In this document: one piece after another, positions 1-63,747 of the stretch
How the letters are laid out: the number at the start of each line of letters is the position of its first letter
Numbering within the stretch: position 1 is the first letter of the stretch
Virus record (IMG/VR): IMGVR_UViG_3300037313_001261
Location: 783-64,782 of that record
Direction: 5' to 3' (one strand)
DNA length: 64,000 nucleotides
From: a virus
Made by a program: the position numbers and the translations under genes
The notes under the pieces: model-generated
Seen by the model: the letters and a program-made list of their open reading frames with translations, nothing else
Databases searched by the model: none
What the model was told of the DNA's origin: nothing

Positions 1-3000
1 CCGCGTCGAAGGCGTACTCGCGCGCTTGCGCGGCGCTCATGCCCCCTTTACGGGCGAGGTTGTAGGCCGCGACCGCCGTGGCGGCGCGGTTGATCGCCTC
101 CACCGCCGAGGGCAGCTGCGAGGCGACGCGGGCGAACTTGCCCAGGTTCTCGCCGACGAAGCCGCGGCCCTCGATCATGTCACGGCTCATCTCGAGCCCG
201 GCCGCGTCCGCCATGCCGCCGCGCTCGAACAACAGATCGAACAGCGCCTTCATTTCCGGATTGCCGTTGAAGCGGCGCCGGATGGCATTACCCACGTCGG
301 TAGTGTCGAGCCCGAGATTACGGAACTGTGCCCCTGCCCGACCGGTGTTCGCCAACCCGCTTTGCCACGCCCGGTGAGCGCCGATCGCCACAAACGCCTT
401 GGACAATTCCAACGCGGCACGCGCGCCGCCGAATTTGCCCGCCAGCACCGGGTACGACACCATCCACGGCTGCATCGCGTTGATGACCGAGTAGGCCGGC
501 GAGAACAGCTTGTCGAGGTACGAGAGCTGCATCAGGGTCTTGACCGCCGGGTTGGGCCCGCGCATGTCGTCGTCCTGCTGCAGCCGCAGCTCCAGCTCCT
601 TGAGGTAGTCGGAGCGCGCCCCGGTCTGCTTGTCGAACACGCCGCGCTGCGCCTCGCGCATTCCCTGGAAGAACTCGCGCGCCACCGGCATGTGCTCGGC
701 CCGCGCCATTGCCGAGGACCAGGTGTGGCCGTAGCGCAGCAGGTTGCGGCTCAAGCTCTTGGACGCGCCGTAGACGTTCTGGCGGTAGAGCGCGTTCTTC
801 TGGATGCGGTTGCCGCTCATCATGCGGATCGCCGCCTCGCGCACCAGGCCTTGGGCAAGGCTCTTGGTGTGGGGGTCGATGTCGCGCCGCGCCGCAATCG
901 AGCTCATCAGGCCCGAGAGCTGGGTCGACTGCAGGTCGCGCCGCACGCCAATGTCGGCGCGCTGCATCGGCTCGTCGTCGATCGACTCGAACGCCTTGCG
1001 GTTCTCGCGGATGAAGCGGTGCGCCTGGGTGTTGGTCTCGAACGAATAAAACCCCTCGCGCTGCACCCGCACGCGGTAGGCGACGTCAACGATCTTGGCC
1101 AGCACGTCGGCCTTGGTCAGCTTGTTGCCGGCCGCGTCCTCGTAGGTGCGCCGGGTGCCTTTACGGTAATCCACCCCCTCGACGCTGCCGGGCTGCAGCG
1201 CCTCGTGTGCCGGGATGCGCTTGTTGGTCTGCAGGTCGTAGTAGATCGTCTCGTCGACCGGCTTTACCCCGCTGGGTAAGTGGTTCTTGAGCGCGTCCTC
1301 CGACTTGATGCGGGTGTTGGTGCCCTTGACGTAGTAGGTCTTGGCCTTCGAGTTGACGATGAGATCGGTGTTCTTCTCGAACACGCTCGACGCCTTGTCG
1401 GCATCGGCCTCGGTGCCGGCCCGGAACTCCACCGTGTCATCGCTGCCCGGCACCATCGTGCCGCCGTGCAGATTCGTGAGCGCGCTCTTGGTGCGGACCA
1501 CGATCTCGCCGTGGCGCATGAGCGGGAAGTAGTCGCCCTTGACGAGCAGCGAGCGCGCCTGCCCGATCGCCTTGAAGGTCTCGTCGTTCATCACCTTCTT
1601 GTCGGCATCGGTGAGCTTGCCGGCGAGCGCCCGGGTGAGGATGTCCTGCTTCTGCTGCGCGCTCAGCCCCGGCTCGAGGTCAAGCCAGTTGCGGATCGTC
1701 TGCGAGGTCAGGTCGTTCTCGGCCTTGCGGTAGAACGCCGTCATCTCCTGATACAGCGCCTTCGCGTCGGGCGAGAGCCGGGCGAACTCGGCCTGCAGGG
1801 TTTTGAGGCCCTCGTGCGCCTGGTGGTCGGTGGCCTTGAGGTGCGTGTTGGAGCCGACGAGCGAGACGTTGAGCATCGTCGCACGCTCGGCGATGTCGGC
1901 CATCGTCGCGGCCATTTGCGGGTTCTTGCGCGCCCAGGCCTCCCACTTCAGGGCGAGCCGGGTCGGCAGCTGGCCGAGCGCGTCGCGGCGCGGCCCGATC
2001 TTCTGCATCTCCTCGATGTAGCGCTGGCCCTGGTCGACGCCGCCCTTCATGAACAAGCCGGCGATGTTCTGCCGGATCTGGTCGAGCGTCATCAGCTTGC
2101 GGCCCACCCGCTTGATCGCGGTGCTGGCGCCGGCGCCGCGATCGCGCGCAGCGTTGAGGGCATCGTTACCCCGCAGGTAATGGGTCTGGACCCCGCGCCC
2201 GCCCAGCGCGGTCGGAACCCCGACCGGGCCGGCACGGAGGTGGTCGATCTCGTCGTTGAGCTGCATCAGCGCGTCGAGCGCCGAGACATGCGCCTCGGGG
2301 ATGCCGAGCGAGGTCTTGACCATCTGCACGAAGGCGTGCCAGGCGCTGCGCGCGGTCTGGATCCAGCCCGGCAGCCCGAGCTCCTTGGCCATGCGCGGCG
2401 GCAGCGGGATATAGGCCATCGCCTCCTGGAAGGTCGGGTTGGAGAAGCCCTCGGCCACCATCTCGTGGATGTTGGTCAGGCCATAGAGCTTCTCGGCCCA
2501 TTCCGGGTCCATGTCCATGAGCTCGTTCTTGACGTAGTCGAACAGCTTTTCGAACTTCGCCTTCAGCTCCGGGTTGCTCTCGATCGCAATCGCGGTCGCG
2601 GCGTGCGCGCCCTCGTGCAGCAGCACGTAACCGCTGCGCTCCACACTGGCGGAGACGTCGTCGCGGATGAAGATCTTGCCCGAGCTCTGGTCGTAAAAGC
2701 CAAGCGGCGGCGGTGTGGCACGGCCGGTCGCGGCGGCGGTGCTGAGGATCTGCCCGAGGTCGGCGTCAATGAAGTCGTCGTAGGACAGCACGTGCACTTC
2801 GGTCTTGCCGATGCGGCTCATCAGGCTCGAGCGCAGCGCGGTGTAGATGTCCTTGACGCGGGCAAAGGTCGGGTTGGTGAAATCGAACTGTCTCAGGATG
2901 CCGTTGAAGTTGCCGCTCGAGATCGGCTTGAACGTGTACGCCATGTGGCGCAGCACGCGCCGGGCGATCTGGGCCGAGTTACCGAGCTGGGTAACCAGCT

Positions 3001-6000
3001 CCGGCGTGCCCTCGACGATGCTGATCGCCTGTTCGATGTAATCGCCGATCTGGGCGTCATCGTAGCCGTTGGCGGCCTTAAACTCCTCCAGCGCGGCACG
3101 CTCCGCCGGCGACAGGCTGTCGTAGGCTTGGCTCAACGTCCAGCCCTGACCCCCGCTCATCTGCGCCAGGATGCGGTCGAACTCCGCTTCCTCCTCGGGC
3201 GTGAGGTCGGTCACGCGCAGCTTGACGCCGTTTTTGGGGATGTCGAACTTGCGCTTCTTCTCCACCTGCACCTTGCCGGTCATGTCGCGGCCGGCGGTCA
3301 CGATGGCATCGCCCGCCGTGGGGTCGTTGCGCTTGGCTTTGAGCGCCGCGAGCCGCGCCTGGGCGGCGGTGCGCTCACCCTCGGTGGCGCCGCGCTCGGC
3401 GAGCGCGCTCACCTTGTCGATCTTCTTCTCGATCTGTTCGCGCTTCTCCTCGGCCGTCGGCAGCCGGACGCCGCGCTCTTCGGCCATTTGGGCGTACTTG
3501 TCGTCGGCTGTTTTGGCCTCGCCGGTGGCGGCTTCCCCGGCCTTGCGGCGGCGGGCCGCCTCATAGGCCTCCTGTTCCAAGCGCTCCGCCTCGTCACGGG
3601 CCTGGTCGGCATTGGCGCGGTCCTGCTGCGAGAGCTCGTCCTGGCCCTCGCCCGAGAACGCGTTCGACGAACTATCACCGCCCGACCCTTGTGCGTTCTG
3701 CTCGATCTGCGTGGTCTTCCAGAAATCCTCGAGCGCGTCACCGCGCGCCGCGAGATCGAACGCCGCGAACTCGGCTGCGCTCTCCGGCCCGAAGCGCCCG
3801 CTCTGCAGCTTGTTGAACACGCGCTTGTACTCGACGAGCGCCTTCTCGTGCAGGCTCATCTGCTTGTTGGCACGGTCCGGCACCTCGATACCGGCGGCCT
3901 TGGCGGCAGCCAGGATCTTACCGACGCGGGTAAGAATCGCGTCCTTGCCGGCTTTGAGGCCATGCAGGGCGCGGTCCTCGGCCTTCTCCCACGGGTGGTT
4001 TTTAAGAATGTCCTTGATCGCCGCGATCTTGCCCTGACGCGCCGCCTCGGTGGCGTCGACCTCGGCCTGCTTCTTCGCCGTGCGCTTGGTCTCCGGCGCA
4101 GCGTCGACGTCGGCATTCTCCTCGGCGGCGATCTTCTGGTCGGTGAAATGCTTGAGCCCGGCTTCGCGCGCCGCGTCGATCTTGGCGCGGGCCTCCTGGT
4201 ACTTCTTGGGGTTGCGCTTGTGGCCGCGTCCAAGTTCGGACAGCGCGGTAAAGCCGGCGTGCAGGTCGCTCCAGAACGGCAGAGCGTTGGGCTCAGCCGC
4301 GCGCTTGGCCGCGAGATCCCGCAGCGCCGCCTCGTTGTCGTGCACGAACGCCGCCGCGTCACCCTCGGTGCGCACCTGCGGGCTCTGCACCCAGGCTTGC
4401 TTGGCCGCTTCCTCGGACGCCTTGTCCTGGCTCGGGATCACCCGGCCGGTGCGCGGCTTGGGCTGTGCCTCGACCGGGGGCGTTACCTGCTCGGTAACCG
4501 GCGTGGTCTCCGGCGCAGCGGAGCGCTCAAGCGACTTGGCGCGGATCACCTCGGCCTTCGTGCGACCTGTCACGGCGGCAGCGGGCTCCTGGCTCGCCAC
4601 CTCACGGAACTGCGCCTCCGGACCGGCCGCGCCGGACGCTCCGGAGGCTCCGGGCGTGGAGGGCTCGGCCAGCGCCGCGTCCCAGTCGAACGTGCCCTGG
4701 CCTTCGAGCGGGCCTAGCCCCTCCGGCTCTCCCACAGATGCGACTTGATCGGCCGGCGCGCCGGGGGCTCGTTGCTCGGGCAGAGCACCGAACAGACCCT
4801 CATCAAAACTTGGTTGAGGGCCTTGATCAGCCACAGCAGGCTGTTGAACAGGGCCCACAGGATCACGGCCACTGAGACCCCCGCGATCGCCGCCGCCAGG
4901 CCCAGGAACAGGGCCGGCAGAAACGCCAGGAGCAGGAGGGGTGGGAGATGAAGGCTTGGCATTGGCGGTCGGGCTCGCAAGCGCGGCCAGTTGATCGGGA
5001 TCCATCAGCTCGGCCGCCGAGGTAATGGCTTCGTTTACGTCTGCCAGGGCCGTGTCGACGGCTTCCTGGCTGCCCGGGGCTGGGGTAGCCGGGGCTTCCG
5101 GCGCGGCTCCCGGGGCCGGGGTTACCTCGTCGGGTAAGCCCTCGGTATCCTCGGGGATGGCGCTCTCATCCTCCTCATCGCCATCGGCGACGGTTTCGGG
5201 GGTGGTGGGCTGGACAGACGGCGGCGGAGACGGCACGGTGCCGGGCGCGGGCGCTGATTCGGTCGCTGCCCCCTCCGTCTCGGGGCCCGTCTTTGCTTCA
5301 ACTGCCGCCGTGGCTCCAGCCGCCATGGCGGCCTTTTCATCAGCCCCGACGCCGTCCTCGGTCACCTCGACGGTGGGCTTGGCGGGCTTGGCGGGCTTGG
5401 CCTCGGGCTCCTCGCCGCCGGTGACCGCGCCGACCGTGCCACCCATCACGCCACCGACCACTATGCCGTTGACGCTCTGGTGCAGCGCCTTCATCCAGTC
5501 GACGCCGTCGATCAGGTGCTGGTTGGCGAGCGCCGAGTCCTCGATGGTCGACTGGAACAGGTTCTCCGCGCCCTCCTGGACGCCTTCCTTGAGGATGCCC
5601 TGGCGGATGCCGCCCTTGGTCATGTGCGCCGCGATACCCTCGGCACCCTGGCTCGAGGTCAGCGCCGAGAACGCGCCCATCAGCACCGGCGCGTAGCCCT
5701 GGGTCTGCTTGATCAGCTCCTCGCGCGCCTCGGCCTTGTCCATGCCCATCTCGACGAGGCCACGGTAGAGGTCGGACTTTTCGAGCTGCTCCTCGGGCAT
5801 CTTGAGAATGCCCTCACGGATGTTGTTGGCGACATCGCCGCCGGTCTCGAGCCCGGCCACCACCATGCCGAGCGGGCCGGCAAACGCCGCCGGCACCACG
5901 GAGGCCACCATCGACGGCATCGAGCGCAGGCTCTGGGCGGTGATCGCCGAGCCCATCGACACGCCCGAATCCCAGACGTCGTTATCCGGGCCCGGGGTCG

Positions 6001-6319
6001 GCAGCCAGTTGGCGCCCCCGGCTTTGCGCGCGGCGGGTGACATCTCCTGTTCGGTGTCGGTGATGTGCTGGTTGAGGTCCTCGCGCAGCCGCGCCGGGAA
6101 GCCGGTCTCGTCGCCGCCGGTGACGTACTGCGCCACGCCCGCGCCCATCTTCATCGTGTCGAAGACGCCGGCCTTGAGGTAGTTGCCCCAGTCGCTCCAG
6201 CTCACCCCCGTGCCCGCATTCTGGGCATCCGCAAACGGATCCCATCCGGGCGTGGCGGGCTCCGGAGCCGGCGCTACGGCATCGGCGCTGTCCTCGGCGA
6301 ACGGATCGTAATCGGCCAT
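1..6319 (-). CDS. Giant internal virion / ejected polyvalent protein (>2100 aa, C-terminus beyond left edge) with zincin metallopeptidase-like domain
   Basis: Absent from the ORF track. ATG at 6319 (MADYDPFAEDSADAVAP...) abuts the upstream stop. The frame was open where I spot-translated it (e.g. 4680-5040). Contains YVLLHEGAHA (HExxH, ~2600-2630) and YGLTNIHEMVAEGFSNP, as in MPTase-type domains of polyvalent proteins. Last gene of the virion operon. Confidence 0.8.
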   Translation of the reverse strand, partial: MADYDPFAEDSADAVAPAPEPATPGWDPFADAQNAGTGVSWSDWGNYLKAGVFDTMKMGAGVAQYVTGGDETGFPARLREDLNQHITDTEQEMSPAARKAGGANWLPTPGPDNDVWDSGVSMGSAITAQSLRSMPSMVASVVPAAFAGPLGMVVAGLETGGDVANNIREGILKMPEEQLEKSDLYRGLVEMGMDKAEAREELIKQTQGYAPVLMGAFSALTSSQGAEGIAAHMTKGGIRQGILKEGVQEGAENLFQSTIEDSALANQHLIDGVDWMKALHQSVNGIVVGGVMGGTVGAVTGGEEPEAKPAKPAKPTVEVTEDGVGADEKAAMAAGATAAVEAKTGPETEGAATESAPAPGTVPSPPPSVQPTTPETVADGDEEDESAIPEDTEGLPDEVTPAPGAAPEAPATPAPGSQEAVDTALADVNEAITSAAELMDPDQLAALASPTANAKPSSPTPPAPGVSAGPVPGPGGGDRGGLSGRDPVGPVQQPAVADQGPQPSFDEGLFGALPEQRAPGAPADQVASVGEPEGLGPLEGQGTFDWDAALAEPSTPGASGASGAAGPEAQFREVASQEPAAAVTGRTKAEVIRAKSLERSAAPETTPVTEQVTPPVEAQPKPRTGRVIPSQDKASEEAAKQAWVQSPQVRTEGDAAAFVHDNEAALRDLAAKRAAEPNALPFWSDLHAGFTALSELGRGHKRNPKKYQEARAKIDAAREAGLKHFTDQKIAAEENADVDAAPETKRTAKKQAEVDATEAARQGKIAAIKDILKNHPWEKAEDRALHGLKAGKDAILTRVGKILAAAKAAGIEVPDRANKQMSLHEKALVEYKRVFNKLQSGRFGPESAAEFAAFDLAARGDALEDFWKTTQIEQNAQGSGGDSSSNAFSGEGQDELSQQDRANADQARDEAERLEQEAYEAARRRKAGEAATGEAKTADDKYAQMAEERGVRLPTAEEKREQIEKKIDKVSALAERGATEGERTAAQARLAALKAKRNDPTAGDAIVTAGRDMTGKVQVEKKRKFDIPKNGVKLRVTDLTPEEEAEFDRILAQMSGGQGWTLSQAYDSLSPAERAALEEFKAANGYDDAQIGDYIEQAISIVEGTPELVTQLGNSAQIARRVLRHMAYTFKPISSGNFNGILRQFDFTNPTFARVKDIYTALRSSLMSRIGKTEVHVLSYDDFIDADLGQILSTAAATGRATPPPLGFYDQSSGKIFIRDDVSASVERSGYVLLHEGAHAATAIAIESNPELKAKFEKLFDYVKNELMDMDPEWAEKLYGLTNIHEMVAEGFSNPTFQEAMAYIPLPPRMAKELGLPGWIQTARSAWHAFVQMVKTSLGIPEAHVSALDALMQLNDEIDHLRAGPVGVPTALGGRGVQTHYLRGNDALNAARDRGAGASTAIKRVGRKLMTLDQIRQNIAGLFMKGGVDQGQRYIEEMQKIGPRRDALGQLPTRLALKWEAWARKNPQMAATMADIAERATMLNVSLVGSNTHLKATDHQAHEGLKTLQAEFARLSPDAKALYQEMTAFYRKAENDLTSQTIRNWLDLEPGLSAQQKQDILTRALAGKLTDADKKVMNDETFKAIGQARSLLVKGDYFPLMRHGEIVVRTKSALTNLHGGTMVPGSDDTVEFRAGTEADADKASSVFEKNTDLIVNSKAKTYYVKGTNTRIKSEDALKNHLPSGVKPVDETIYYDLQTNKRIPAHEALQPGSVEGVDYRKGTRRTYEDAAGNKLTKADVLAKIVDVAYRVRVQREGFYSFETNTQAHRFIRENRKAFESIDDEPMQRADIGVRRDLQSTQLSGLMSSIAARRDIDPHTKSLAQGLVREAAIRMMSGNRIQKNALYRQNVYGASKSLSRNLLRYGHTWSSAMARAEHMPVAREFFQGMREAQRGVFDKQTGARSDYLKELELRLQQDDDMRGPNPAVKTLMQLSYLDKLFSPAYSVINAMQPWMVSYPVLAGKFGGARAALELSKAFVAIGAHRAWQSGLANTGRAGAQFRNLGLDTTDVGNAIRRRFNGNPEMKALFDLLFERGGMADAAGLEMSRDMIEGRGFVGENLGKFARVASQLPSAVEAINRAATAVAAYNLARKGGMSAAQAREYAFDA

Positions 6320-8833
6320 TTAGAAGCGCCCCTGCTGGATGGCGAGATCGTCCCCGTTGTCGCTGCTGAAGCCGAGCGGGGTTTTGGGAGTGGGGCCGCC
6401 GGTGACCAGGCGGCTGAGCCCGGTCGGCTTACCCGCGTCGGTAACCGGGCCGGGCTTGGGCGCCTTGGCGCGCTTGGCCGCGATGTAGGCGGCAGTCTGC
6501 ATCGACACCTTGTACTGCTGCCCGTTGACGGTGATCAGCGCGTTGCCGTCGGGCGTCTTCTGCACCTTGGCGTCGGGCGTCACAATGGCGTCGCGGATCA
6601 CCGTGGCGGCGTGGTCGGGGCCGACAATGCCGGGGTTGTTCTTGATCATGTCGATCGCCCCGGCGCGCATCGGGAAACGATCGGCTTCCGGCAGCGTGTC
6701 CTTGCCGAGCCCCTGCGCGATGGCGGCATCGACGGCGGCATCACGATCCGGGTTGATCGTGGGGGCGCGCCCAGTGGTGCCCGCCGGCTTGGCCTGGTAG
6801 CGCGGCCGCGACAGCGTGTTGAACTGCTGCGTGTAGCGCGCGCCCTCCGGGCTCGCCTTGATGAAATCGCCCGCCGCCGCGAGCGCCTGCTTGCGCTCCT
6901 CGTTGAGCCGGCCGAGCGTCTCGGTGTCGTTGGCCTTTTGGGCGTCGGCAATGTCGCGGTCGATGGCGTTGATCGCCGTCACATGGTCGGCCCAGCTCAT
7001 CGCGGCGTTGTTCTTGGCCTCACCCTCGGCGGCCTTCTTGTCGTAATACGCGTTGCGGCGCTTGCGGTCTTCCTCCTGCACCGTGAAGCGCTGGTCGGCA
7101 CGCTGCTCGGCGCGGTCGGCGCGGGCTTGCCCCGCCTCGTAGCGCGCGTCCGAGATCGCCTCACGCTGGGCGCGGTGACCGGCCGCGGCCTGGCGCTGCG
7201 CCACGCCCGACATCTGCTCGTACCACAGCGAGCCGTTTTGCATCCCCGTGGCCACGTACATCAGCTGGTTGACGGTGGCCTGGCCCTGGTGCGTGAGCGC
7301 GCCGGTCTCGTCGTCGGCGAGCGCAAACCCCACCGTGCCGTCCTTACCGACCGAGGTAATCTTCATCGTCTGGCCGTCGGGGATCATCGAGTACGAGCTG
7401 GCGATCGCTTTCGCCGCGCCGGCGTGATCACCGGCCTCGAGCGCCGCTTGCGCGATGTAGCCACCGCGCGACACCACGTTGCGGATGTGCAGCAGGATGC
7501 CGCGCTGGATTGCCGCCGCCTTCTGCGGCTGGCCCTTGTTCATGTAGTACTCGTAGGACGCGTTCATGCCGGCAATCAGCCGGGCGTCCTCGCGCAGCTG
7601 GCGCTTCGGGTCGACCGTGTCCTTGAGCTGCTCGACCTCCTGCGGGCTCATCGCCCCGGTGGAGAACACCTGCTGCATCTGGCGTGGGTCGGGCTGAGAG
7701 GCGCCGGGGATCGCGCCCTGGCCGCCGCTGATCATGTGGTTGAGATCGACGAGCCCCGCCTTGACCGACTGCGCGGTGCGGTCCTTGGACAGGAACTGGG
7801 AGAGCTCGCCGCCCCGCCCCTGCTTGCCGAGCTCCTGCGCGTTCATCGCGTTGCGCTGGTCGAGCGACGGGTTGTCGCCATAGTCCGGCAGCTTCAGCAG
7901 GCCGGGCGTGCCGCCCTGGGCTTGCGCGGGCGGGGGCGCGTTGAGATCCTCCTCGCCCTTGCCCTTGGCATCGGCGTAGGCGACCTTCGGGCCACCCTTC
8001 TTGGGTGCCGCCTTGGCCACCTTGGCGTCCTTGGGGGCCGGCTTACCTTTTGGGGTAACCTTGCCCTTCGGCTGCTTCGAGAGCGCATCGGCATCGGCCG
8101 TGCCCTCGTTCTTCGGCACCGGGCGGTAATCGGGCTCGGCCAGGCTGGCGCTCTGGCGGCGTCCGTCCTCGCGGTCCGACGCCCCGGCGCGCAGCGCGTC
8201 GGTCTTGTCCTCGCGGCCGTAGCGCGCGGTCAAACTATCACGCCCGCCATCGCCCGAGTTGGTCGAGCGGTCCTCGCGGTTGGGGTCGACGCTTGCCGTG
8301 TCGATCGGGCCGGTGGTGATCTTCGCCGCGGTTACATCGCCGTCCGGCTGGCTGTTCTCGCGTGCAGAAGCGCGGCGCATTTCGGCACCCCGGGCCGCGT
8401 CACGAAAACCCTGGTTGGGCAGGGGACCGGACCGATCGTAGGGGTCGGACGGGATGGCTTCCGCGCGAGCCGCAGCAACAGCCACACCTCGGCCGCCACG
8501 CCCAGCATCGCGCAGAGAAGCATTAGGTACAGGGCCAGAACGATCATAGGGATCCTCGGGGGCCGGGGTGCGGTCCGCCAGGGCGGCACGCCGCAGGTTC
8601 GGGTTGCGTTCAACAGGATCGGAGCTTGCCTCGGCGGGGCGGCGGTCGGCTTCCGCAGCCCGGCGCAGCGAGGCGTTCTTTTCGACGTAGCCGGTTGTAT
8701 CTTCCGGCGTGTACGGAATTGCGGCCTCTTGCCGGGCGGCGCTCTTGTCGCCCTGATCGGTGCGGCCGTAGCGCATGTTGCGCGACGGATCGGCTTCATC
8801 CAGCGCCTGCAGGAAAGCATCAACGTCCGGCAT
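6320..8833 (-). CDS. Internal virion protein (putative), 837 aa
   Basis: Long Ala/Gln-rich ORF between the muramidase-like gene and the giant gene, where podoviral ejection proteins usually lie. Confidence 0.65.
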   Translation of the reverse strand: MPDVDAFLQALDEADPSRNMRYGRTDQGDKSAARQEAAIPYTPEDTTGYVEKNASLRRAAEADRRPAEASSDPVERNPNLRRAALADRTPAPEDPYDRSGPVPNASLRDAGRGGRGVAVAAARAEAIPSDPYDRSGPLPNQGFRDAARGAEMRRASARENSQPDGDVTAAKITTGPIDTASVDPNREDRSTNSGDGGRDSLTARYGREDKTDALRAGASDREDGRRQSASLAEPDYRPVPKNEGTADADALSKQPKGKVTPKGKPAPKDAKVAKAAPKKGGPKVAYADAKGKGEEDLNAPPPAQAQGGTPGLLKLPDYGDNPSLDQRNAMNAQELGKQGRGGELSQFLSKDRTAQSVKAGLVDLNHMISGGQGAIPGASQPDPRQMQQVFSTGAMSPQEVEQLKDTVDPKRQLREDARLIAGMNASYEYYMNKGQPQKAAAIQRGILLHIRNVVSRGGYIAQAALEAGDHAGAAKAIASSYSMIPDGQTMKITSVGKDGTVGFALADDETGALTHQGQATVNQLMYVATGMQNGSLWYEQMSGVAQRQAAAGHRAQREAISDARYEAGQARADRAEQRADQRFTVQEEDRKRRNAYYDKKAAEGEAKNNAAMSWADHVTAINAIDRDIADAQKANDTETLGRLNEERKQALAAAGDFIKASPEGARYTQQFNTLSRPRYQAKPAGTTGRAPTINPDRDAAVDAAIAQGLGKDTLPEADRFPMRAGAIDMIKNNPGIVGPDHAATVIRDAIVTPDAKVQKTPDGNALITVNGQQYKVSMQTAAYIAAKRAKAPKPGPVTDAGKPTGLSRLVTGGPTPKTPLGFSSDNGDDLAIQQGRF

Positions 8834-53217: not shown

Positions 53218-53233
53218 TTACCCGTGAGGTAAC

Positions 53234-56562: not shown

Positions 56563-56588
56563 GCCACCACATTACCGACGAGGGTAAC

Positions 56589-57002
56589 ATGTCCACCTTT
56601 GGGGATATCGACATCAAGAAGCGGGCGCAGCAATACATCGACCTGCGCGATAAAATCACCGCAATCAAGAAGCGGCACACCGAGGAGCTGGCGCCTTACA
56701 CCGAGGCGCTGCACAAGCTCAACATGATGCTGCTCGACCACCTCAACTCCATCAACACCGACACCACCGCGGTCAGAGGCGTGGGCACGGTGTACCGGAA
56801 AGAGAACGTGTCGGCGACGCTCGCCGATGCCGAGGCTTTCCGGGACTACGTGATCCAGAGCGGCGACTGGAACATGGCCGATATCAAGGCTAACAAAACC
56901 GCCGTGAAGGATTATGTCGATGAACACGGGACACCGCCCGTGGGCGTCACCTACACCGTCACTTTCGACGTCGGCGTGCGTCGGAGTGGATCTTCCAAGT
57001 AA
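56589..57002 (+). CDS. Conserved phage replication-module protein (hypothetical)
   Basis: YIDLRDKI...GTVYR...PPVGV, start after the motif. Confidence 0.65.
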   Translation: MSTFGDIDIKKRAQQYIDLRDKITAIKKRHTEELAPYTEALHKLNMMLLDHLNSINTDTTAVRGVGTVYRKENVSATLADAEAFRDYVIQSGDWNMADIKANKTAVKDYVDEHGTPPVGVTYTVTFDVGVRRSGSSK

Positions 57003-57025: not shown

Positions 57026-58120
57026 GTGGCTAACAACGCACTTGCACTCAACAACGGCGGCCAGCTGCCCGCGCTGGCCCGCGACTTCCTCGACGCCAAC
57101 AACGAGCTCGGCGGCGGCATCTCGTCCGGCTTTGCCGTGTTCTCGTTCCGCGGCAAGGTCTGGCGCGTCAAGCACAAGGGCGAGGAGCACATCCTCGAGC
57201 GCGACATCGACGGCCACCGCCAGCCGGTGCCGTTCGTCGATCTCGTCATCGTCAAGGCGCCCGACCATCTCTCGAAGGTGTTCTACAAGTCGGGCTACCA
57301 GGAGGGCTCGTCGGCCCCGCCCGACTGCTACTCCACCAACGGCACCGTGCCGGCCAACGACAGCCCGGAGAAGCAGCACGCCTCGTGCGTCGCCTGCCCG
57401 TGGAACAAGTTCGGCTCGCGCGTGTCGGACAACGGCTCCAAGGGCAAGCGCTGTGCCGATGCCAAGCGCCTCGCCGTGATCCCGGCCAACGACCTCGACG
57501 GTGAGATCTGGGGCGGGCCGATGCTGCTGCGCGTGCCTGCTGCGTCCTTGCGGGCGCTCGACATGCTCAACCGGATGGTCAAGGCGGCGCATGTGCCGTA
57601 CTTCGCCGTCGTGGTGCGGATCTCGTTCGACGTCCAGAAGGCGCATCCGGAGTTCGTCATCCAGGCGCTGCGCTACCTCACCGACGACGAGTTCGCCAAG
57701 GTGCTGAAGTGGCGTGACGACGAAGCCACCCAGCGCATCCTCGACGAAGTGCTGACCGAGGAGTACGGCGCGGGCGTTACCGACCCGGGTAATGGACTGG
57801 CCGGCACCCCGCCGGCGGGCGCCACCGTGGGCGTGACCGGCGGTCTGACACAGCAGCCGGTGGCCCCCAAGCCGTCGCTGTCGCAGCGCGCCGCCGCCTC
57901 CGTGCAGCGCCCCGCGCCCACCACCGCAGCGCCCAAGCCCGCCACGCCGAAGCCCGATGTCAAGCCGGCTCCGAGCGAGACACAGCCCGCCGACCTCGCG
58001 GCCGACGACACCACCGACGCCGAGTACACCGAGGTCAGTCAAAACGAGGCTGAAACCGAGGCGGTTCAGGCGACCGGCGTGGACGCGTTCGACGACACGC
58101 TCGATGCTCTGCTGAAATAA
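57026..58120 (+). CDS. Putative ssDNA-binding / annealing protein
   Basis: PPDCYS...CVACPWN...KRC...LRVPAASL, low-complexity linker and acidic C-terminal tail, in the replication module. Confidence 0.55.
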   Translation: MANNALALNNGGQLPALARDFLDANNELGGGISSGFAVFSFRGKVWRVKHKGEEHILERDIDGHRQPVPFVDLVIVKAPDHLSKVFYKSGYQEGSSAPPDCYSTNGTVPANDSPEKQHASCVACPWNKFGSRVSDNGSKGKRCADAKRLAVIPANDLDGEIWGGPMLLRVPAASLRALDMLNRMVKAAHVPYFAVVVRISFDVQKAHPEFVIQALRYLTDDEFAKVLKWRDDEATQRILDEVLTEEYGAGVTDPGNGLAGTPPAGATVGVTGGLTQQPVAPKPSLSQRAAASVQRPAPTTAAPKPATPKPDVKPAPSETQPADLAADDTTDAEYTEVSQNEAETEAVQATGVDAFDDTLDALLK

Positions 58121-58185: not shown

Positions 58186-61143
58186 ATGCTCGATCCAACG
58201 CGCACCTATCTTGAGGCGGTGCTGCCGTGGCCACCACACGGCGATCCGAACGCGTACTTCAATCTGCACTGGCCGACCACCGATCTCAAGACGCAAGGGC
58301 CCGATGCCGGCCGCCCGTTCTGGGATGCCCGCGCCTGCACCAGCGTCGAGGAGATGCTGCAGCTGATCCAGGCGCTCAACCAAGGCCGCTTCAAGAAGGC
58401 GGCGGGCGACGTCTATGTGTGCATGTCCTCGCAGCGCATCATGGAGGTGAAAACCTACAATGGTCGGGATTACCGCGTCGGTAAGAAATCGCAGGGCGGC
58501 GTGGTGCAGCTGCGCTCGCTGTTTCTCGATATCGACGTCAAGGCCGACAAGGGCTACGCCAGCCAGCGTGACGCCCTGCTGGCCCTGAAAGAGTTCCGCA
58601 CCGCGGTCGGCTTGCCGGCCCCGACGCTGCACGTGTCGTCCGGCACCGGCGGCATCCACGCCTATTGGGTGCTCAGCGAGTGCCTGACGCGCGAGGAGTG
58701 GCAGCCGCTCGCCAATGCGCTCGCCGCCGCGGCGCGCCAGCACGGCTTGAAATTCGACAGCCAGTGCACGATCGACTCGGCCCGCGTTCTGCGCGTGCCC
58801 GGCACCCGCAACACCAAGCCCGGTGGCACCCAGGTGCAGATCCTCGGCGGCGTCGGCGACCAACTCAGCGTCACCGACGCGCACCAGATCCTGGCCCCGT
58901 TCAAGGGTCTTACCCACCTCGGTAACACCCCGGCGTCGCTGGGGATCGACGGCCAGGCACCGACGCTGGCGGTGCTCAACGCTGGCGCCAACCGGGAGCT
59001 CGGGGCCGGGGTTGAGCGCGAGAGCCGCCCGGTCATCCTGCCGACCGTGGCCCCCGACTGCGCCTTCTTTGCCGACGCCTACGCCACCGGCGGCGCGGCC
59101 CACGACAACCCGCTGTGGAACCTCGCCGTGCTGGCAACCACGTTCGCCGAGGATGGGCTCGCCCAGGCGCACGCGCTCTCCAAGGGCCACCCCGATTATG
59201 ACCCCGCCGCCGTTGAGGCCCTCTACGCGCGAAAGGTGAAGGAACGTGAAACTAATCCCGCAATTGGTTGGCCGTCGTGTCAGTCCATATCGCTTACGGG
59301 CTGTGCGTCGTGCGCGACATGCCCGCATTTCTCTGCCGGCAAAAGCCCGCTCCATTTTGCGAAAAGGGCCAACCTCCCTTTTAGCCAGCAGGACCCCGAC
59401 CTCCCCGACCGCGCCGGCAACGGAGCCCTTTACGCTCGCGGCGCTGACGGCCGGATCTGGGTTATTGATCCGGAGGCCGAGCCCGGGGAACCTGATCGGT
59501 TCCTGGTCTGTGAGTATCCACTGACCGACGGCTGGCTGCAGGACAATCCGTGGACGCTCCATTTCGCTACCCGCGTGGGTAACCGGAAGGCCACGGTGCA
59601 GCTCGCCACGCCCGAGCTGCAGGGGCGCGACTGGACCAAGCTCCTCGCCCAGCAGGGCGTGGATATTCCACTCCACCACCGCACACACCTACAGGGATTT
59701 CTCGTGGCCTGGATCAACAAACTCAAGTCAACGCCCGGCGGCGTTGTCTCGACCAACCCCTATGGCTGGGTGTTGGACGAGAACCAAATCGTCGGCTTCT
59801 CCTATGGCGGCGTGGTGCACACGCCGACCGGCACCCGCCCGACCGCGTCGGCTGACCCGGTGATCGAGCGCCAGTACCGCCCCAAGGGTGACATCACGCC
59901 GTGGAAAGAGGCGGCGACGATGATTACCGACCAGGGTAGGCCGGCGCTCGAAGCGATCCTGGCGTGCGCGTTCGGCGCGCCGCTGATGCGCTTTACCGGC
60001 GAGAACGGCGTCATCGTCTCGGCCTACTCGAAGGAGTCCGGCATCGGCAAGTCGACCGCGATCAAGGTCGCCCAGTCGGTGTGGGGCGACCCGATCAAGG
60101 CGGTGCAGTCGCTCACCGACACCAACAACTCGGTCATCGGCAAGGTCGGCGTGCTGCGCTCGCTGCCGATGTTCTGGGACGAGATGAAGGGCAACGAGCA
60201 GGCGTCGAAGTTCGTCGACATCGCCTTCAACGTCACCCAGGGCAAAGAAAAGTCGCGCATGACGGCCAATGTGACCCAGCGTGACCCCGGTGTGTGGCAG
60301 ACCCTGTTGCTGGCGGCGTCGAACGACAGCCTAGCTGAGGTCGTGGCGCGGCAGTCCCGCTCGGCGGCGGGGCATTACCGCGTACTCGAGTTTGTGGTCG
60401 AGCCGGCGCTGACCCAGACCGCCGTGGCGTCCGACGTGGCGCGCATGGTTCTCAAGCTGCACGATAACTTCGGACAGCCGGGACTGGTCTTCGCGGACTA
60501 CCTCGGCGCGAACTTTGAAGACATCGACAGCGCGGTGGGCACGATGCAGCGGCATATTGCGGCCTCCTTGAACACCACCCCGGATGAACGCTTCTGGGTG
60601 GCGGGTGTTGCGGCGATGCTGGTCGGTGCTGAGATCGCCAACGACCTTGGCCTTACAGCCTTTAACATCGAAGATCTAGCTCAGTTCCTGCTGAAAACGG
60701 TCGAAACCATGCGGGAACAGTTAACCATGCAGTCGATCGACCTGTCGAGGGCGACCTCGATCGAGGACATCCTGGCGCAGTATTTGAAGGATGTCCGCGC
60801 CACCAACTACCTCGAGACCAACAAGATCCACTCGGGCAAGGGCAAGCCCGCCGGCGGCTCGATCACGCCGCAGAACGACACCTCGCGGCTGCAGGCGGTC
60901 AACGTCCAGCTCGGCAAGGAGGACAACCTGCTGCGGTTCTCGCAGAGCCACTTCTCGAAGTGGATCGTCGACAACCGGATGGGCTCGGTCGCCAACATCA
61001 CCGGCGCCATGAAGGCGCAATGGGGCATGACGGCCAAGAACGCCAGCCTCGGCTCGGGCACGATCTTTGCCACCAACATGAAGGAGTGGCTGTGGGAGAT
61101 CGACCTGACCAAGATCCACCCGGTTACCGACGGGGGTAAGTGA
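58186..61143 (+). CDS. Primase-helicase (RepB-like primase + DUF927-type helicase)
   Basis: LDID, SSGTGGIHAYW, RVLRVPGTRN, Cys cluster CASCATC, SGIGKST and WDE. Confidence 0.8.
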   Translation: MLDPTRTYLEAVLPWPPHGDPNAYFNLHWPTTDLKTQGPDAGRPFWDARACTSVEEMLQLIQALNQGRFKKAAGDVYVCMSSQRIMEVKTYNGRDYRVGKKSQGGVVQLRSLFLDIDVKADKGYASQRDALLALKEFRTAVGLPAPTLHVSSGTGGIHAYWVLSECLTREEWQPLANALAAAARQHGLKFDSQCTIDSARVLRVPGTRNTKPGGTQVQILGGVGDQLSVTDAHQILAPFKGLTHLGNTPASLGIDGQAPTLAVLNAGANRELGAGVERESRPVILPTVAPDCAFFADAYATGGAAHDNPLWNLAVLATTFAEDGLAQAHALSKGHPDYDPAAVEALYARKVKERETNPAIGWPSCQSISLTGCASCATCPHFSAGKSPLHFAKRANLPFSQQDPDLPDRAGNGALYARGADGRIWVIDPEAEPGEPDRFLVCEYPLTDGWLQDNPWTLHFATRVGNRKATVQLATPELQGRDWTKLLAQQGVDIPLHHRTHLQGFLVAWINKLKSTPGGVVSTNPYGWVLDENQIVGFSYGGVVHTPTGTRPTASADPVIERQYRPKGDITPWKEAATMITDQGRPALEAILACAFGAPLMRFTGENGVIVSAYSKESGIGKSTAIKVAQSVWGDPIKAVQSLTDTNNSVIGKVGVLRSLPMFWDEMKGNEQASKFVDIAFNVTQGKEKSRMTANVTQRDPGVWQTLLLAASNDSLAEVVARQSRSAAGHYRVLEFVVEPALTQTAVASDVARMVLKLHDNFGQPGLVFADYLGANFEDIDSAVGTMQRHIAASLNTTPDERFWVAGVAAMLVGAEIANDLGLTAFNIEDLAQFLLKTVETMREQLTMQSIDLSRATSIEDILAQYLKDVRATNYLETNKIHSGKGKPAGGSITPQNDTSRLQAVNVQLGKEDNLLRFSQSHFSKWIVDNRMGSVANITGAMKAQWGMTAKNASLGSGTIFATNMKEWLWEIDLTKIHPVTDGGK

Positions 61144-62129
61144 TGACCAGCCTGGCTCAGTTGATTGTTGAGTGGGACACCACCAAGCTCAAGAATATGT
61201 CGGAACAGGCGCAGATCGCCATCAACAACACCCGTGCCGCCCTGGGTGGTTTTGGTGGCGGCACCCGCCGGTTGCTTGAAAACCTGCCGCCGGTGCAGGC
61301 AGAGAAGTTCGTGTTTCAGCAGGACGTCTTCACCGTGGTCGACGGGCTCATCAAAGGCGGGCACGTCGACTATGGCATGATGGTCCAGACGCTGCGACTG
61401 CCGCTCGATTTCTTCTGGATGGAGTGGCCGGACACCAGCGAGGTTGCACAAGGGTTCACCGGCCGCCAGGGCGTCCTGGTCGACGCCACCATGGTCGGCC
61501 AGACCGAGGGCATCCGGGACGTGTTTGACCCCGAGTGCCCGATCCTGATCTACCATTGGGCGTCGCGGGGCGACGAGCCCATGCCGTTGTCGGTGGTGAA
61601 CCTGCCGGCTTATCCGCTCATCCCAGGCCGGCAATATTTCCATATCCCGAACTGGACCTTGGTGCAGGAGCTCAACCCGCCGTTCGTGGATGCGAAAGCC
61701 GAATCTGAGCGCATGATGGATGAACTGCAGTGGCGGTGGGAGGCGGCGCTGTTTCTGCTCTGCACGCCACGGGTCTCGGAGCTGCGGGATGTTACCTTTG
61801 CGGGTAAGCTGCAGAAGGCGCGGCAGCGGCGCAACAAGCCACCGCTGCTGGAATACAAGCAGGTCTCCCTCACGGTGGGCGTTGGCACCCCGACCTATGC
61901 CCGGTCCTCGACCGGGCTGGGCAACGGTGGCGATCCCGAGGTCTACCACAAACGGCTGCATCAGGTGATGGGCCATTTCCGCACCTACACCAAGGACCGC
62001 GAGACCCCGCACATCGCCTGGGTGCCGCCGCACTGGCGTGGCGACCCGGAGCTTGGCGTCGTCCTGCACCATCGCAATGTGAAGCTGCCCACCCCCAAGC
62101 CCCGGCCAATGTTAGAGGACCAACGGTGA
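61143..62129 (+). CDS. Hypothetical conserved phage protein
   Basis: C-terminal HQVMGHFR...WVPPHWRGDPELG motif. Confidence 0.7.
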   Translation: MTSLAQLIVEWDTTKLKNMSEQAQIAINNTRAALGGFGGGTRRLLENLPPVQAEKFVFQQDVFTVVDGLIKGGHVDYGMMVQTLRLPLDFFWMEWPDTSEVAQGFTGRQGVLVDATMVGQTEGIRDVFDPECPILIYHWASRGDEPMPLSVVNLPAYPLIPGRQYFHIPNWTLVQELNPPFVDAKAESERMMDELQWRWEAALFLLCTPRVSELRDVTFAGKLQKARQRRNKPPLLEYKQVSLTVGVGTPTYARSSTGLGNGGDPEVYHKRLHQVMGHFRTYTKDRETPHIAWVPPHWRGDPELGVVLHHRNVKLPTPKPRPMLEDQR

Positions 62130-63136: not shown

Positions 63137-63223
63137 CCCGAAACGGGAAATCCCGTATCGGTGAGCGGAGTAAAGCCCCCGCTCACTTCCGTTACCCGGC
63201 AGGTAACCCCGGAAATCAATCGC

Positions 63224-63469: not shown

Positions 63470-63747
63470 TTGCCCCCCTTGAGCGTCGCCCGGTTGGTCT
63501 TCTTCGAGTAGCTGTAGTCGGACGGCTTGTGCTTGTTACCGCCATAGGTAACGGCACGGTCGATGGCCCGCCCCGCCGCCCCCATCGCGCCGCGCTTCAC
63601 GCCCTTGGCGGTCGCCTCGGCGGTGCCGGGCTTGAGGTTGCCCGACGCCTGCAGCTTCTTGGTGGCGACCGCCGCCGCCTCACCCGGGCTCATGCCCTTT
63701 GCGCGCAGCTGGCCCTCCAGGCGCGAGAGAATCTTGGGCTTGCTCAC
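63466..63747 (-). CDS. Hypothetical basic protein
   Basis: GTG start overlapping the upstream stop. Confidence 0.6.
   Translation of the reverse strand: MSKPKILSRLEGQLRAKGMSPGEAAAVATKKLQASGNLKPGTAEATAKGVKRGAMGAAGRAIDRAVTYGGNKHKPSDYSYSKKTNRATLKGGK

Follow-up and report, generated by a model that had tools for sequence, protein, structure and literature searches.

The ParB-parS and Noc-NBS arrays are read by ParB-family CTPase clamps and consist of contiguous palindromes of 13-16 bp, and plasmid RK2 carries 12 OB sites. The stoperators of phage L5 are read by its repressor, gp71, and the start-associated sequences in Cluster K mycobacteriophages lack symmetry and occur only at starts. Within the accessible portions of PMC4351075, start-associated sequences are reported from Cluster K, the Cluster A stoperators are described as asymmetric and oriented with transcription, and the Cluster O phages (Corndog) are described as carrying a 17-bp dyad repeat in 34 copies, about a third of them intragenic, whose function is unknown. 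The available part of PMC11790492 describes KorB of plasmid RK2 as a protein that enters at scattered OB operators and acts at a distance. Here we describe a palindrome, TTACC-N5/6-GGTAA, that recurs throughout a 64,000-nucleotide stretch of viral DNA, hereafter the window, which spans bases 783-64782 of a 64,782-bp IMG/VR virus record rated 100% complete (IMGVR_UViG_3300037313_001261, hereafter G000). G000 is an uncultured podovirus-like phage from soil, nearly all of whose 64.8 kb the window covers, and the phage collection searched held no near-identical record. As far as the visible part of PMC4351075 allows the comparison, the Cluster O dyad repeats are the closest described case.

The window contains 68 perfect copies of the palindrome, 49 with a 6-nt spacer (N6) and 19 with a 5-nt spacer (N5), compared with none in 100 dinucleotide-preserving shuffles of the same sequence (mean 0.00, maximum 0). 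A preliminary description of this stretch had listed 67 positions and judged the number far above chance. All 67 are correct, one copy at 58470-58484 had been overlooked, and the shuffles uphold the excess. The distance between the arms is narrowly restricted: among other spacers from N0 to N30, N7, N12 and N22 occur once each and the rest not at all, and the outward arrangement GGTAA-Nk-TTACC is absent from the window. Lone half-sites are at background, since 68 of the 95 TTACC pentamers in the window belong to the palindrome and the 27 and 25 orphans compare with 34 each for the reversed words CCATT and AATGG. Twelve one-mismatch copies were found, including all eight noted previously, against none in the reversed window; because 10 of these 12 deviate only at the outermost base, the invariant core is TACC-N5/6-GGTA.

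Codon-level controls were run on 40 curated genes (45,963 nt; 200 runs of each shuffle). These genes hold 33 intragenic copies, whereas shuffling synonymous codons with the protein kept gave a mean of 0.47 (maximum 3) and shuffling codon order gave a mean of 0.04 (maximum 1). The preliminary description had held that its claim would fall if codon-preserving shuffles returned similar counts, and this outcome did not occur. Given that both shuffles fall far below 33, codon choice and amino-acid sequence have both been shaped to carry the word.

The array extends across a clade of phages. Among 35 IMG/VR loci found through their large terminase (55-69% identical), 29 have at least one perfect copy, and two of the six without one (L014 and L015) have the variant TTACT/AGTAA. 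The closest cultured relatives of G000 are the Rhizobium phages RHph_TM27A/B, TM29 and TM3_14A (58% identity in the portal, 39% in the primase-helicase), and RHph_TM27A has 46 copies, 34 perfect and 12 variant, in 60.9 kb. Whole records were counted with a pattern that admits the C/T variant, TTACY-N5/6-RGTAA, for which reversed controls gave 0-2 copies:

G006: 64 copies in 58.7 kb
G005: 51 copies in 58.4 kb
G002: 43 copies in 56.9 kb
G001: 39 copies in 52.9 kb
G003: 17 copies in 54.1 kb
G004: 0 copies in 67.6 kb
Four partial records: 5-19 copies

No copy was present in the 20 kb examined for each relative with a major head protein at most 60% identical (L070-L097). The word of G002 is TTACT/AGTAA and spacer-edge preferences vary among genomes; its specificity appears to drift between lineages. 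Most site positions are not common to the orthologous genes of relatives, although a few are kept, and the sites turn over while their density persists. The conservation in related phages that the preliminary description had hoped for is therefore found at the level of the array and its density, which are kept across the clade, and not for most individual positions. Three records, G014, G015 and G017 (L157, L120 and L208), have lineage-specific spacer habits, and G015 and G017 repeat one exact 16-mer (spacer ACGCAA on one strand) at several different places. The IMG/VR loci L126:10041-10152 and L137:2233-2385 show four copies within 100-150 bp, in tight clusters and not a lattice.

Bacterial chromosomes do not share the enrichment. 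The Bradyrhizobium genome G011 (8.7 Mb) has 12 copies compared with 9 for the reversed control, 9 of the 12 on a phage-like contig, and Bradyrhizobium G012 (7.9 Mb) has 13 compared with 11, with 11 of the 13 on two contigs. The frequency in candidate hosts, a point raised in the preliminary description, is thus at background in both. Chromosomal copies in G011 and G012 fall below the reversed control, which is unmatched for codon and TA-dinucleotide bias, and we draw no conclusion about host avoidance of the word. An unbiased pattern scan of IMG/VR with an 18-base extended word returned at least 120 stretches. Among the 120 matches listed, most loci are single-copy, as chance predicts, and no unrelated phage with an array was seen. 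Five many-copy dispersed loci were followed up: the three records long enough for the test all encode a major head protein 65-66% identical to that of the window, and the other two are short fragments without the major head region. Judged from these comparisons, the array appears to belong to one phage clade and not to the chromosomes of its hosts.

Spacing between copies is more even than chance in all four dense genomes. The coefficient of variation (CV) of the gaps in G000 is 0.58, compared with 0.99 for random placement, and none of 5,000 simulations was as low (P<0.0002). The longest gap in G000 is 2,214 bp against 4,449 expected at random, and the left arm alone has a gap CV of 0.44. For perfect copies the CV is 0.69 in G006 (P 0.0016), 0.64 in G005 (P 0.0014) and 0.62 in G001 (P 0.0020); the effect is not significant in the sparse G003, nor for the perfect copies of RHph_TM27A. 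The gap-distribution test proposed in the preliminary description thus shows a departure from randomness toward evenness.

The positions that flank the arms bear on how the word is read. Each half of the site, taken on its own strand, has the same skew as the other at two positions, the base preceding the arm and the one that opens the spacer. At the first spacer base, G000 has A1 C20 G16 T12 in one half and A0 C27 G11 T11 in the other. Among the 55 copies of G006, the arm is preceded by G in 38 and 40 for the two halves and followed by T in 30 and 45. Pooled P values against genome composition range from 3e-3 to 3e-32 in G000, G006, G005 and G002; the base before the arm is not skewed in G001 (P 0.27). 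Pairing within sites does not accompany this symmetry: over 209 N6 sites, the spacer positions s1/s6 pair in 81 cases compared with 95.3 for shuffled partners, s2/s5 in 49 compared with 65.7, and the flanks in 73 compared with 85.1. This agrees with the earlier remark that the spacers are not self-complementary. Among the N6 copies of G000, arm-adjacent pairing is below that of shuffled partners (8 vs 15.5, 10 vs 17.3 and 6 vs 12.5; P ~0.01 each); the deficit weakens within one reading-frame class (phase 1, defined below) and is absent in other genomes, and we make no claim that longer stems are avoided.

Preferences that are symmetric but independent point to two identical protein subunits on duplex DNA, since a hairpin would give covariation or no symmetry. 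The half-site centres lie 10-11 bp apart, one helical turn, which is the half-site distance of CRP/FNR- or MarR-type operators; with symmetric and independent half-sites, the word appears to have the architecture of a dimeric winged-helix or helix-turn-helix (HTH) operator (CRP-, MarR-like). Most copies printed for G014 (67 of 128 strand-hits listed) fit TTACCTT-YR-AAGGTAA, with 7-bp arms and a 2-nt centre, and because that centre is too short for a loop these sites are not expected to be hairpins. Taken together, the sequence patterns favor a dimeric protein on duplex DNA over a hairpin, and the tolerance of both N5 and N6 implies that such a dimer would be flexible. The core idea of the preliminary description, a dimeric DNA-binding protein and not a repeat expansion, is thereby favored, through symmetry without pairing, even spacing, an unenriched host and site turnover.

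We also examined where the copies lie relative to genes. The left arm of the window (2-29247) is read leftward and encodes the portal/adaptor, the major head protein and a polyvalent protein of more than 2,100 amino acids with an LPD39 domain. The right arm, read rightward, encodes the large terminase, many small early genes, an AAA ATPase with its DUF2201/VWA partner, a family-A DNA polymerase, a PD-(D/E)XK nuclease, an SNF2 helicase and a 985-amino-acid PrimPol-SF3 helicase. About 23 of the 68 copies, a class sorted by hand, enclose a purine-rich Shine-Dalgarno sequence and end 0-12 nt 5' of a start codon, typically as GGTAAc(g)ATG; several of these double as the TAA stop of the preceding gene. 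The copies away from starts are mostly intragenic (roughly two thirds of all copies) and alter the protein. The preliminary description's phrase that the palindrome occurs even inside coding sequence therefore holds for most copies and misses those that enclose a Shine-Dalgarno sequence before starts. The sites are listed below with their context; the palindrome has no strand of its own, and strands are those of the open reading frames (ORFs).

1264-1279: N6 copy, within the 2106-amino-acid ORF 2-6319 (-), phase 0
2166-2180: N5 copy, within ORF 2-6319 (-), phase 2
2979-2994: N6 copy, within ORF 2-6319 (-), phase 1
3918-3933: N6 copy, within ORF 2-6319 (-), phase 1
4483-4497: N5 copy, within ORF 2-6319 (-), phase 1
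5122-5137: N6 copy, within ORF 2-6319 (-), phase 0
6429-6444: N6 copy, within ORF 6320-8833 (-), phase 1
7344-7359: N6 copy, within ORF 6320-8833 (-), phase 1
8043-8058: N6 copy, within ORF 6320-8833 (-), phase 1
8876-8890: N5 copy, within ORF 8820-9872 (-), phase 1
10007-10022: N6 copy, within ORF 9883-11052 (-), phase 1
11721-11736: N6 copy, between ORFs 11039-11512 (-) and 11791-13047 (-), or in an unconfirmed ORF
13047-13062: N6 copy, start-associated, last base is the A of the ATG of ORF 11791-13047 (-); also within ORF 12872-14641 (-)
14767-14782: N6 copy, within ORF 14574-14996 (-), phase 1
15036-15051: N6 copy, intergenic, ~40 nt 5' of the start at 14996 (-)
16062-16077: N6 copy, within ORF 15950-16609 (-), phase 1
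16681-16695: N5 copy, start-associated, 12 nt 5' of a minus-strand ATG
18647-18662: N6 copy, within ORF 18265-19263 (-), phase 1
20360-20375: N6 copy, within ORF 19267-21363 (-), phase 1
22329-22344: N6 copy, intergenic, downstream of the major head gene 22377-23342 (-)
24214-24229: N6 copy, within ORF 23394-24434 (-), phase 1
25472-25487: N6 copy, intergenic, between ORF 25493-27031 (-) and the small Gly/Lys-rich gene
26736-26751: N6 copy, within ORF 25493-27031 (-), phase 1
27131-27146: N6 copy, within the portal/adaptor gene 27031-29247 (-), phase 1
28719-28733: N5 copy, within the portal/adaptor gene 27031-29247 (-), phase 1
29684-29699: N6 copy, within ORF 29246-29725 (+), phase 0
31590-31605: N6 copy, close to the 5' end of ORF 31390-31629 (-)
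33000-33015: N6 copy, gene junction, no spanning ORF
34537-34552: N6 copy, overlap of ORFs 34347-34919 (+) and 34323-34634 (-); either strand may be coding
35645-35659: N5 copy, ORF-poor stretch
36242-36257: N6 copy, start-associated, 4 nt 5' of ATG 36262
36974-36989: N6 copy, within ORF 36262-37026 (+), phase 1
37299-37314: N6 copy, within ORF 37103-37492 (+), phase 1
38275-38290: N6 copy, spacer TGGGAG, start-associated, 1 nt 5' of an ATG
38598-38612: N5 copy, no spanning ORF
38899-38914: N6 copy, start-associated, 2 nt 5' of ATG 38917
39171-39186: N6 copy, 4 nt 5' of ATG 39191; its TAA is the stop of the upstream ORF
39439-39454: N6 copy, 1 nt 5' of an ATG; its TAA is the stop of the upstream ORF
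39846-39860: N5 copy, spacer TGGAG, 2 nt 5' of ATG 39863
40347-40361: N5 copy, 2 nt 5' of ATG 40364; its TAA is the stop of the upstream ORF
41247-41262: N6 copy, within ORF 41159-41512 (+), phase 1
41541-41556: N6 copy, start-associated, 2 nt 5' of GTG 41559
41746-41761: N6 copy, 3' end of ORF 41559-41768 (+), phase 1
42204-42219: N6 copy, 8 nt 5' of ATG 42228 (AAA ATPase gene)
43320-43335: N6 copy, immediately 3' of the ATPase gene TGA, 2 nt 5' of ATG 43338
44372-44387: N6 copy, 5 nt 5' of ATG 44393
44853-44867: N5 copy, 3 nt 5' of ATG 44871
45377-45392: N6 copy, 2 nt 5' of ATG 45395 (DUF2201/VWA gene)
45959-45974: N6 copy, within the DUF2201/VWA gene, phase 0
46948-46963: N6 copy, 5 nt 5' of ATG 46969
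47416-47430: N5 copy, 2 nt 5' of ATG 47433
47705-47719: N5 copy, 2 nt 5' of ATG 47722
48200-48214: N5 copy, 2 nt 5' of ATG 48217
48747-48762: N6 copy, 4 nt 5' of GTG 48767
49383-49397: N5 copy, within ORF 49301-50029 (+), phase 1
51096-51111: N6 copy, within the DNA polymerase gene 50042-52063 (+), phase 1; a G002 copy in the same alignment column
52735-52749: N5 copy, intergenic
53218-53232: N5 copy, immediately 3' of a TAA stop, 1 nt 5' of ATG 53234 (PD-(D/E)XK nuclease gene)
54812-54827: N6 copy, within the SNF2 helicase gene, phase 1; column occupied in 5/5 motif-bearing genomes compared, not in G004
55047-55061: N5 copy, within the SNF2 helicase gene, phase 2
56572-56587: N6 copy, 1 nt 5' of ATG 56589
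57777-57792: N6 copy, within ORF 57026-58120 (+), phase 1, in a lineage-specific insertion
58470-58484: N5 copy, within the PrimPol-helicase gene, phase 2
58910-58925: N6 copy, within the PrimPol-helicase gene, phase 1
61124-61139: N6 copy, 3' end of the PrimPol-helicase gene, abutting the start of ORF 61140-62129
61792-61807: N6 copy, within ORF 61140-62129 (+), phase 1
63192-63206: N5 copy, coding context ambiguous
63536-63551: N6 copy, no spanning ORF
288-303: one-mismatch copy, outermost base
11139-11153: one-mismatch copy, second base; may be chance
35213-35227: one-mismatch copy, outermost base
40644-40659: one-mismatch copy, outermost base; precedes a start codon
44044-44058: one-mismatch copy, ninth arm base; precedes a start codon
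46530-46545: one-mismatch copy, outermost base
49773-49788: one-mismatch copy, outermost base
51568-51583: one-mismatch copy, outermost base
52300-52315: one-mismatch copy, outermost base; precedes ORF 52319-52537
54069-54084: one-mismatch copy, outermost base
59567-59582: one-mismatch copy, outermost base
59924-59939: one-mismatch copy, outermost base
50092-50108: sole N7 variant of the palindrome

Intragenic copies use all three frames, 37 in phase 1 (xTT-ACC-NNN-NNN-GGT-AAx, read as (V/L/I/F)-T-x-x-G-(N/K)), 10 in phase 0 and 5 in phase 2, and the preliminary description was right to place copies in the portal/adaptor, PolA, SNF2 helicase and primase-helicase genes in differing frames. Many lie in variable loops, low-complexity linkers or small lineage-specific insertions, and alignment with relatives indicates that they arise in general by substitution and not by insertion. 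The peptide (V/L/I)-T-x-x-G-(N/K) is present only in genomes that have the site: at column 67 of the helicase alignment it occurs in 5/5 motif-bearing genomes, and G004 encodes FEWRGE. The major head and large terminase genes have no copy in any of the seven IMG/VR genomes compared. Placement before starts recurs in RHph_TM27A, where 10 of the 46 copies are found no more than 20 nt 5' of an annotated start, compared with 1.6 expected at random. This start-associated third of copies is best explained by cost, with the bases around the ribosome-binding site being the only free ones in a packed early region, since the TAA of the word and its G-rich right half suit such surroundings. These copies could still have an additional translational role.

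From the enrichment, symmetry, spacing, conservation and clade restriction of the word, we infer that its copies are docking sites on duplex phage DNA for a two-fold symmetric (dimeric) sequence-specific DNA-binding protein encoded by the phage, a proposal for which we see the balance as about even. Each monomer would read a half-site of ~7 bp, (G/A)-TTACC-(not A, or T in other lineages). The reader would most likely be encoded in the early/replication module and be fast-evolving, and its sites would be placed where they are cheapest, in the ribosome-binding sites of packed early genes and in the tolerant loops and linkers of large proteins. What the bound protein does is a guess by analogy: it might organise or protect the chromosome during replication and packaging, much as in KorB-OB or Noc-NBS arrays. 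Because the array tiles the genome without a gap above 2.2 kb and the word is at background level in the host chromosome, the array would label the phage DNA as a whole. Gene-by-gene regulation is unlikely, since structural and early genes are both covered and the direction of transcription is ignored. Tentatively, and leaning against rather than for it, we extend the docking proposal as follows: this clade of Rhizobiales podoviruses may write a self-specific address label into its DNA, read by a fast-evolving phage dimer to tell phage from host DNA; the reader would organise replication re-initiation, compaction before packaging or nuclease shielding; and label and reader would co-evolve, as in the variants of G002, G014 and G015 and the other 17-bp word of G004.

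The genome without copies, G004, bears on where such a reader may be encoded. Its head proteins are 63-71% identical to those of motif-bearing genomes, which average 66 among themselves, and its portal proteins are 54-59% identical, compared with a mean of 59. The homologue of gene 57026-58120, by contrast, is 26-30% identical compared with 49, the ATPase 27-33% compared with 49, and the primase-helicase 30-33% compared with 46. The lack of copies together with divergent early and replication proteins suggests that the reader moves together with the early/replication module, with decay of the sites once it is lost. G004 (L049-L052; e.g., L049:10556, 13298, 17832 and 19607) contains 15 copies of a 17-bp near-palindrome, GTTGAAC-NN-GGTTTAAC, mostly non-coding and often beside terminator-like hairpins, with 0-1 copies in the other seven genomes; it could serve another reader as a replacement word, or act as a promoter or operator.

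The best candidate reader is a predicted winged-helix protein of ~110 amino acids encoded between PolA and the PD-(D/E)XK nuclease in G001, G002, G005, G006 and RHph_TM27A (EVB29_062), that is, in five of the seven motif-bearing genomes, at the following loci:

L042:1131-1451, winged-helix family member
L053:8007-8348, winged-helix family member
L047:6020-6343, winged-helix family member
L044:4996-5331, winged-helix family member
RHph_TM27A 34663-34977, winged-helix family member

Each of these five genes has a copy of the word within 400 nt, and the PolA-nuclease gap of G004 is just ~123 nt. Two of four members give sub-threshold Trans_reg_C matches, and the structural model (predicted local distance difference test score, pLDDT, 86.7) has MarR-family and OmpR-type DNA-binding domains as its closest folds, with weak Foldseek E values of 0.013-0.06. 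As a universal reader this family is ruled out unless G000, which has no detectable homologue and the densest array, has a non-homologous replacement. The syntenic G000 ORF, 52319-52534, was rejected: its predicted fold, of low pLDDT (62.7), is all-beta, and it is unrelated to the G003 ORF found there.

Other small proteins of G000 were considered. The small Gly/Lys-rich head-module protein was rejected as a reader because syntenic ORFs occur in all eight genomes, including G002 and G004; in the window (25213-25479, minus strand) it is basic, has repeated GGSxKMFG(K)Q..GP motifs and lies between portal-side and scaffold-side genes. A family of ~17 small paralogous genes was rejected as G000-specific, with 0 regex matches in seven other genomes. 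Its members, at 38917-48438, have a conserved N-terminus MRLxDLxW and C-terminus LEAQCLL, and in several the palindrome is translated as Y-L-E-G-N. The remaining DNA-binding candidates are:

33421-33675: G000 HTH_17 protein, homologues only in G001 and G003
34072-34326: G000 HTH_23 protein
32315-32608: G000 HTH protein
56311-56562: G000 weak HTH_3 protein, no positional orthologue, weak match only in RHph_TM27A
48428-48700: G000 zinc-finger protein

Conservation of these five proteins extends no further than G001 and G003. The first three lie in a leftward cluster (32315-34634, minus strand) whose three small HTH proteins are HTH_38/28-like, HTH_17 and HTH_23 and which also encodes an N4 gp49/Sf6 gp66-family protein. 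Pfam scans of 40 protein queries and PHROG scans of 20 gave no ParB-like domain, with ~18 left-arm ORFs outside the scan, and the 40 Pfam-scanned proteins include small HTH proteins and no integrase or CI-like repressor. Four invariant cysteines, a long low-complexity linker of Ala and acidic residues and a conserved F..LD..L tip at the C-terminus make the product of 57026-58120 look like a zinc-containing single-stranded-DNA-binding protein rather than a site reader; protein atlas matches for it and for 56589-57002 are unnamed viral clusters only.

Several results weigh against a phage-encoded dimer as the reader. No gene family is present in all motif-bearing genomes yet absent from G004, whether by G000-centred tblastn or by all-against-all clustering of 5,015 ORFs, in which most "G004-absent" clusters are antisense shadows of conserved genes. 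The winged-helix homologue is absent from G000, G003 and G004 (hmmsearch --max, best E 0.53-2.6), the HTH proteins of G000 itself have homologues in at most two relatives (G001 and G003), and the argument from G004 concerns a single genome. The flanking positions of the two halves differ somewhat in several genomes (e.g., G006, P 0.005-0.011). A rigid dimer would not usually accept spacers of both 5 and 6 nt, whereas a hairpin loop of either size is natural, and the RNA stem is plausible, with a mean of -3.1 kcal/mol and a probability above 0.5 in 46 of the 68 sites (30-nt context on each side). Mixed half-sites in G002 run 18 to 4 in the G-U-compatible direction on the sense strand. Finally, about one-third of copies stand in a fixed register with start codons, which a purely physical role on DNA would not need.

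The last four of these points, from the loop lengths to the start-codon register, form together with the start-proximal copies of RHph_TM27A the case for an RNA hairpin, in which a UUACC stem and a 5- or 6-nt loop, holding the Shine-Dalgarno sequence where it precedes starts, would be bound on messages by an RNA-binding protein or nuclease and would control starts or stabilise or process the messages. We consider this quite unlikely. The stem sequence is fixed and never covaries, and the flank and spacer-edge preferences are complement-symmetric yet unpaired. The bias of G002 is confounded because, in the usual frame, C or T on the left is silent in a Thr codon, while the G on the right belongs to a Gly codon or Shine-Dalgarno sequence; mixed sites outside G002 are 17 G-U-compatible to 16 C-A (RHph_TM27A counted by hand), and a hand count of the one-mismatch copies of G000 on the sense strand gave ~5-6 C-A to ~2 G-U. 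Moreover, two thirds of copies are inside ORFs, where ribosomes would melt stems, and evenness across both divergent arms suggests a property of the DNA. Protein docking has a special case in which both reader and function are named: the PrimPol-SF3 helicase (58186-61143) would use the copies as distributed loading or priming signals on both strands, their ~1 kb spacing arising from lagging-strand priming or re-initiation. This protein, DUF927 included, has a weak PrimPol AEP match (6zp9, E 0.06) and an SF3 helicase match (8tch, E 9e-12) to the replication protein of a staphylococcal pathogenicity island, a group whose Rep proteins bind specific origin iterons. A palindrome presents the same word on both strands whatever the fork direction, the spacing is even with a maximum gap of 2.2 kb, and the word follows the replication module, the primase-helicase of G004 being among its divergent proteins. 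Nevertheless, 68 origins or loading sites in one genome are, to our knowledge, without precedent, a simple trinucleotide-type primase signal is excluded by the background level of lone half-sites, and G002 has changed its word although its primase-helicase is no more divergent (39% compared with 37-41%), so we regard this use as an unlikely, if live, option. The RHph_TM27A counterpart of this gene, likewise a weak PrimPol AEP domain fused to an SF3 helicase with DUF927, is annotated "putative integrase."

That a universal phage-encoded reader was not found among the compared genomes could also mean that the reader belongs to the host and has few sites on its chromosome, for instance a nucleoid protein or transcription factor of the Rhizobiales that the array recruits or titrates. 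Host switches could then account for the variants of G002 and the loss in G004, and chance-level chromosomal copies fit a factor with few operators. We nevertheless hold this to be improbable, because the word follows the phage replication module and not tail or head genes, the few copies on the two Bradyrhizobium chromosomes are not alike in sequence, and the testable motif-dense contigs (3/3) fall in one clade, a weak test given that the hosts of most relatives are unidentified. For the same reason, the decoy for a host protein that the preliminary description had entertained becomes less likely. Least probable of all, and in our view very much so, is that the word marks where a phage enzyme nicks, cuts or chemically modifies DNA at regular intervals, as at T5-like nick sites or a modification motif. 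Regular spacing would suit it, PD-(D/E)XK, VRR-NUC-like and small HNH-like nucleases are encoded, and RHph_TM27A has an annotated methyltransferase. However, known phage nick motifs are asymmetric and strand-specific, paired nicks 5-16 bp apart on opposite strands of a palindrome would sever the genome, the nucleases also occur in the motif-less G004, and modification motifs require neither enrichment nor even spacing.

Three familiar classes of repeated word were rejected. REP/MITE repeats, extragenic palindromes that are imperfect, 20-40 bp or longer and spread as units, do not fit a 15-16-bp unit with unrelated flanks and spacers that is mostly intragenic and arises by substitution without regular insertion. 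A Type I/IIB restriction-modification target, a bipartite word whose spacer has a single fixed length and which phages avoid, does not fit two spacer lengths (19 N5 and 49 N6) or a word that is massively enriched and not avoided. A Chi-like hotspot, a short asymmetric word with enrichment in the host chromosome, does not fit lone half-sites at the phage background, or a palindrome at background in Bradyrhizobium genomes.

The host of G000 is probably a member of the Rhizobiales, given its cultured Rhizobium phage relatives and the ~60 kb phage-sized contigs inside two Bradyrhizobium isolate assemblies, whose major head protein is 70-73% identical; the RHph_TM27A record names Rhizobium phaseoli and R. 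etli as hosts. The clade contigs in these assemblies measure 60.6 and 61.0 kb, and a Pseudolabrys metagenome-assembled genome has two clade copies 61.9 kb apart on one 465-kb contig (L063, L068 and L066/L067 in all). Such resident contigs hint at a carrier state, episome or tandem prophage. Word density in the resident Bradyrhizobium and Pseudolabrys copies is low, 0.1-0.3 per kb.

To hold a 10-base word at even intervals, selection has altered dozens of protein sequences and ribosome-binding sites, and the word has been kept across phages whose core proteins are 55-70% identical. The cost of keeping it is so high that an important whole-chromosome function is implied. Since the clade includes the cultured and sequenced RHph_TM27A, the question can be tested at the bench. 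Finding the reader would open a way into how small lytic phages label and handle their DNA, and would provide a simple signature for recognising the clade and its word variants in metagenomes. If the address label proves true, it would be a general level of phage chromosome biology not described before, with the Cluster O repeats as a further instance.

Literature searches, with subscription papers and supplements outside their reach, returned no description of this word or of repeats in RHph_TM27-type phages and no paper naming such phages; a "TTACC" match in PMC12658196 is a primer only. Compared with described systems, the array shares with stoperators, as far as they are described in the partly accessible source, many dispersed copies of a short site, also inside transcription units, and, on the docking proposal, a single phage protein that would read them. 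Stoperators, however, belong to temperate phages with a known repressor, whereas the site here is palindromic, mostly intragenic and found with no integrase or repressor among the scanned proteins. The stoperator analogy drawn in the preliminary description fails on the defining asymmetry and orientation, the site being palindromic with complement-symmetric preferences beyond the arms. Like the start-associated sequences of Cluster K, ~23 of the 68 copies stand at a fixed few bases before starts and include the ribosome-binding site, but two thirds lie elsewhere (10 of 46 start-associated in RHph_TM27A), unlike the confinement to starts there. KorB-OB resembles the array, within the available text, in having one palindrome scattered over a replicon of ~60 kb (PMC11790492), and it offers a model of how a lattice could work across a whole genome. 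ParB- and KorB-type sites differ in being contiguous over 13-16 bp, compared with 5-bp arms split by 5 or 6 unrelated bases here, and, for RK2, in number (12 compared with 68).

The Cluster O repeats come closest. From the part of PMC4351075 that can be consulted, both arrays have invariant inverted arms, a variable centre and more than 30 copies genome-wide, and both mix intergenic, near-start and mid-gene positions, are denser in the arm of small genes and are not oriented to transcription. They differ in having 7-bp arms and a 3-bp centre there compared with 5-bp arms and a 5-6-bp centre here, in Actinobacteria as hosts, in 34 copies compared with 68 in 64 kb, and in about a third of copies being intragenic compared with roughly two thirds here (PMC4351075). 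The window thus shows the inverted arms, variable centre and >30 dispersed copies that describe the Cluster O type, although the words and the phages are unrelated. We conclude that the feature is real, strongly selected and clade-wide, with a cultured representative, and that it belongs with the Cluster O repeats among the poorly understood genome-wide palindrome arrays of phages.

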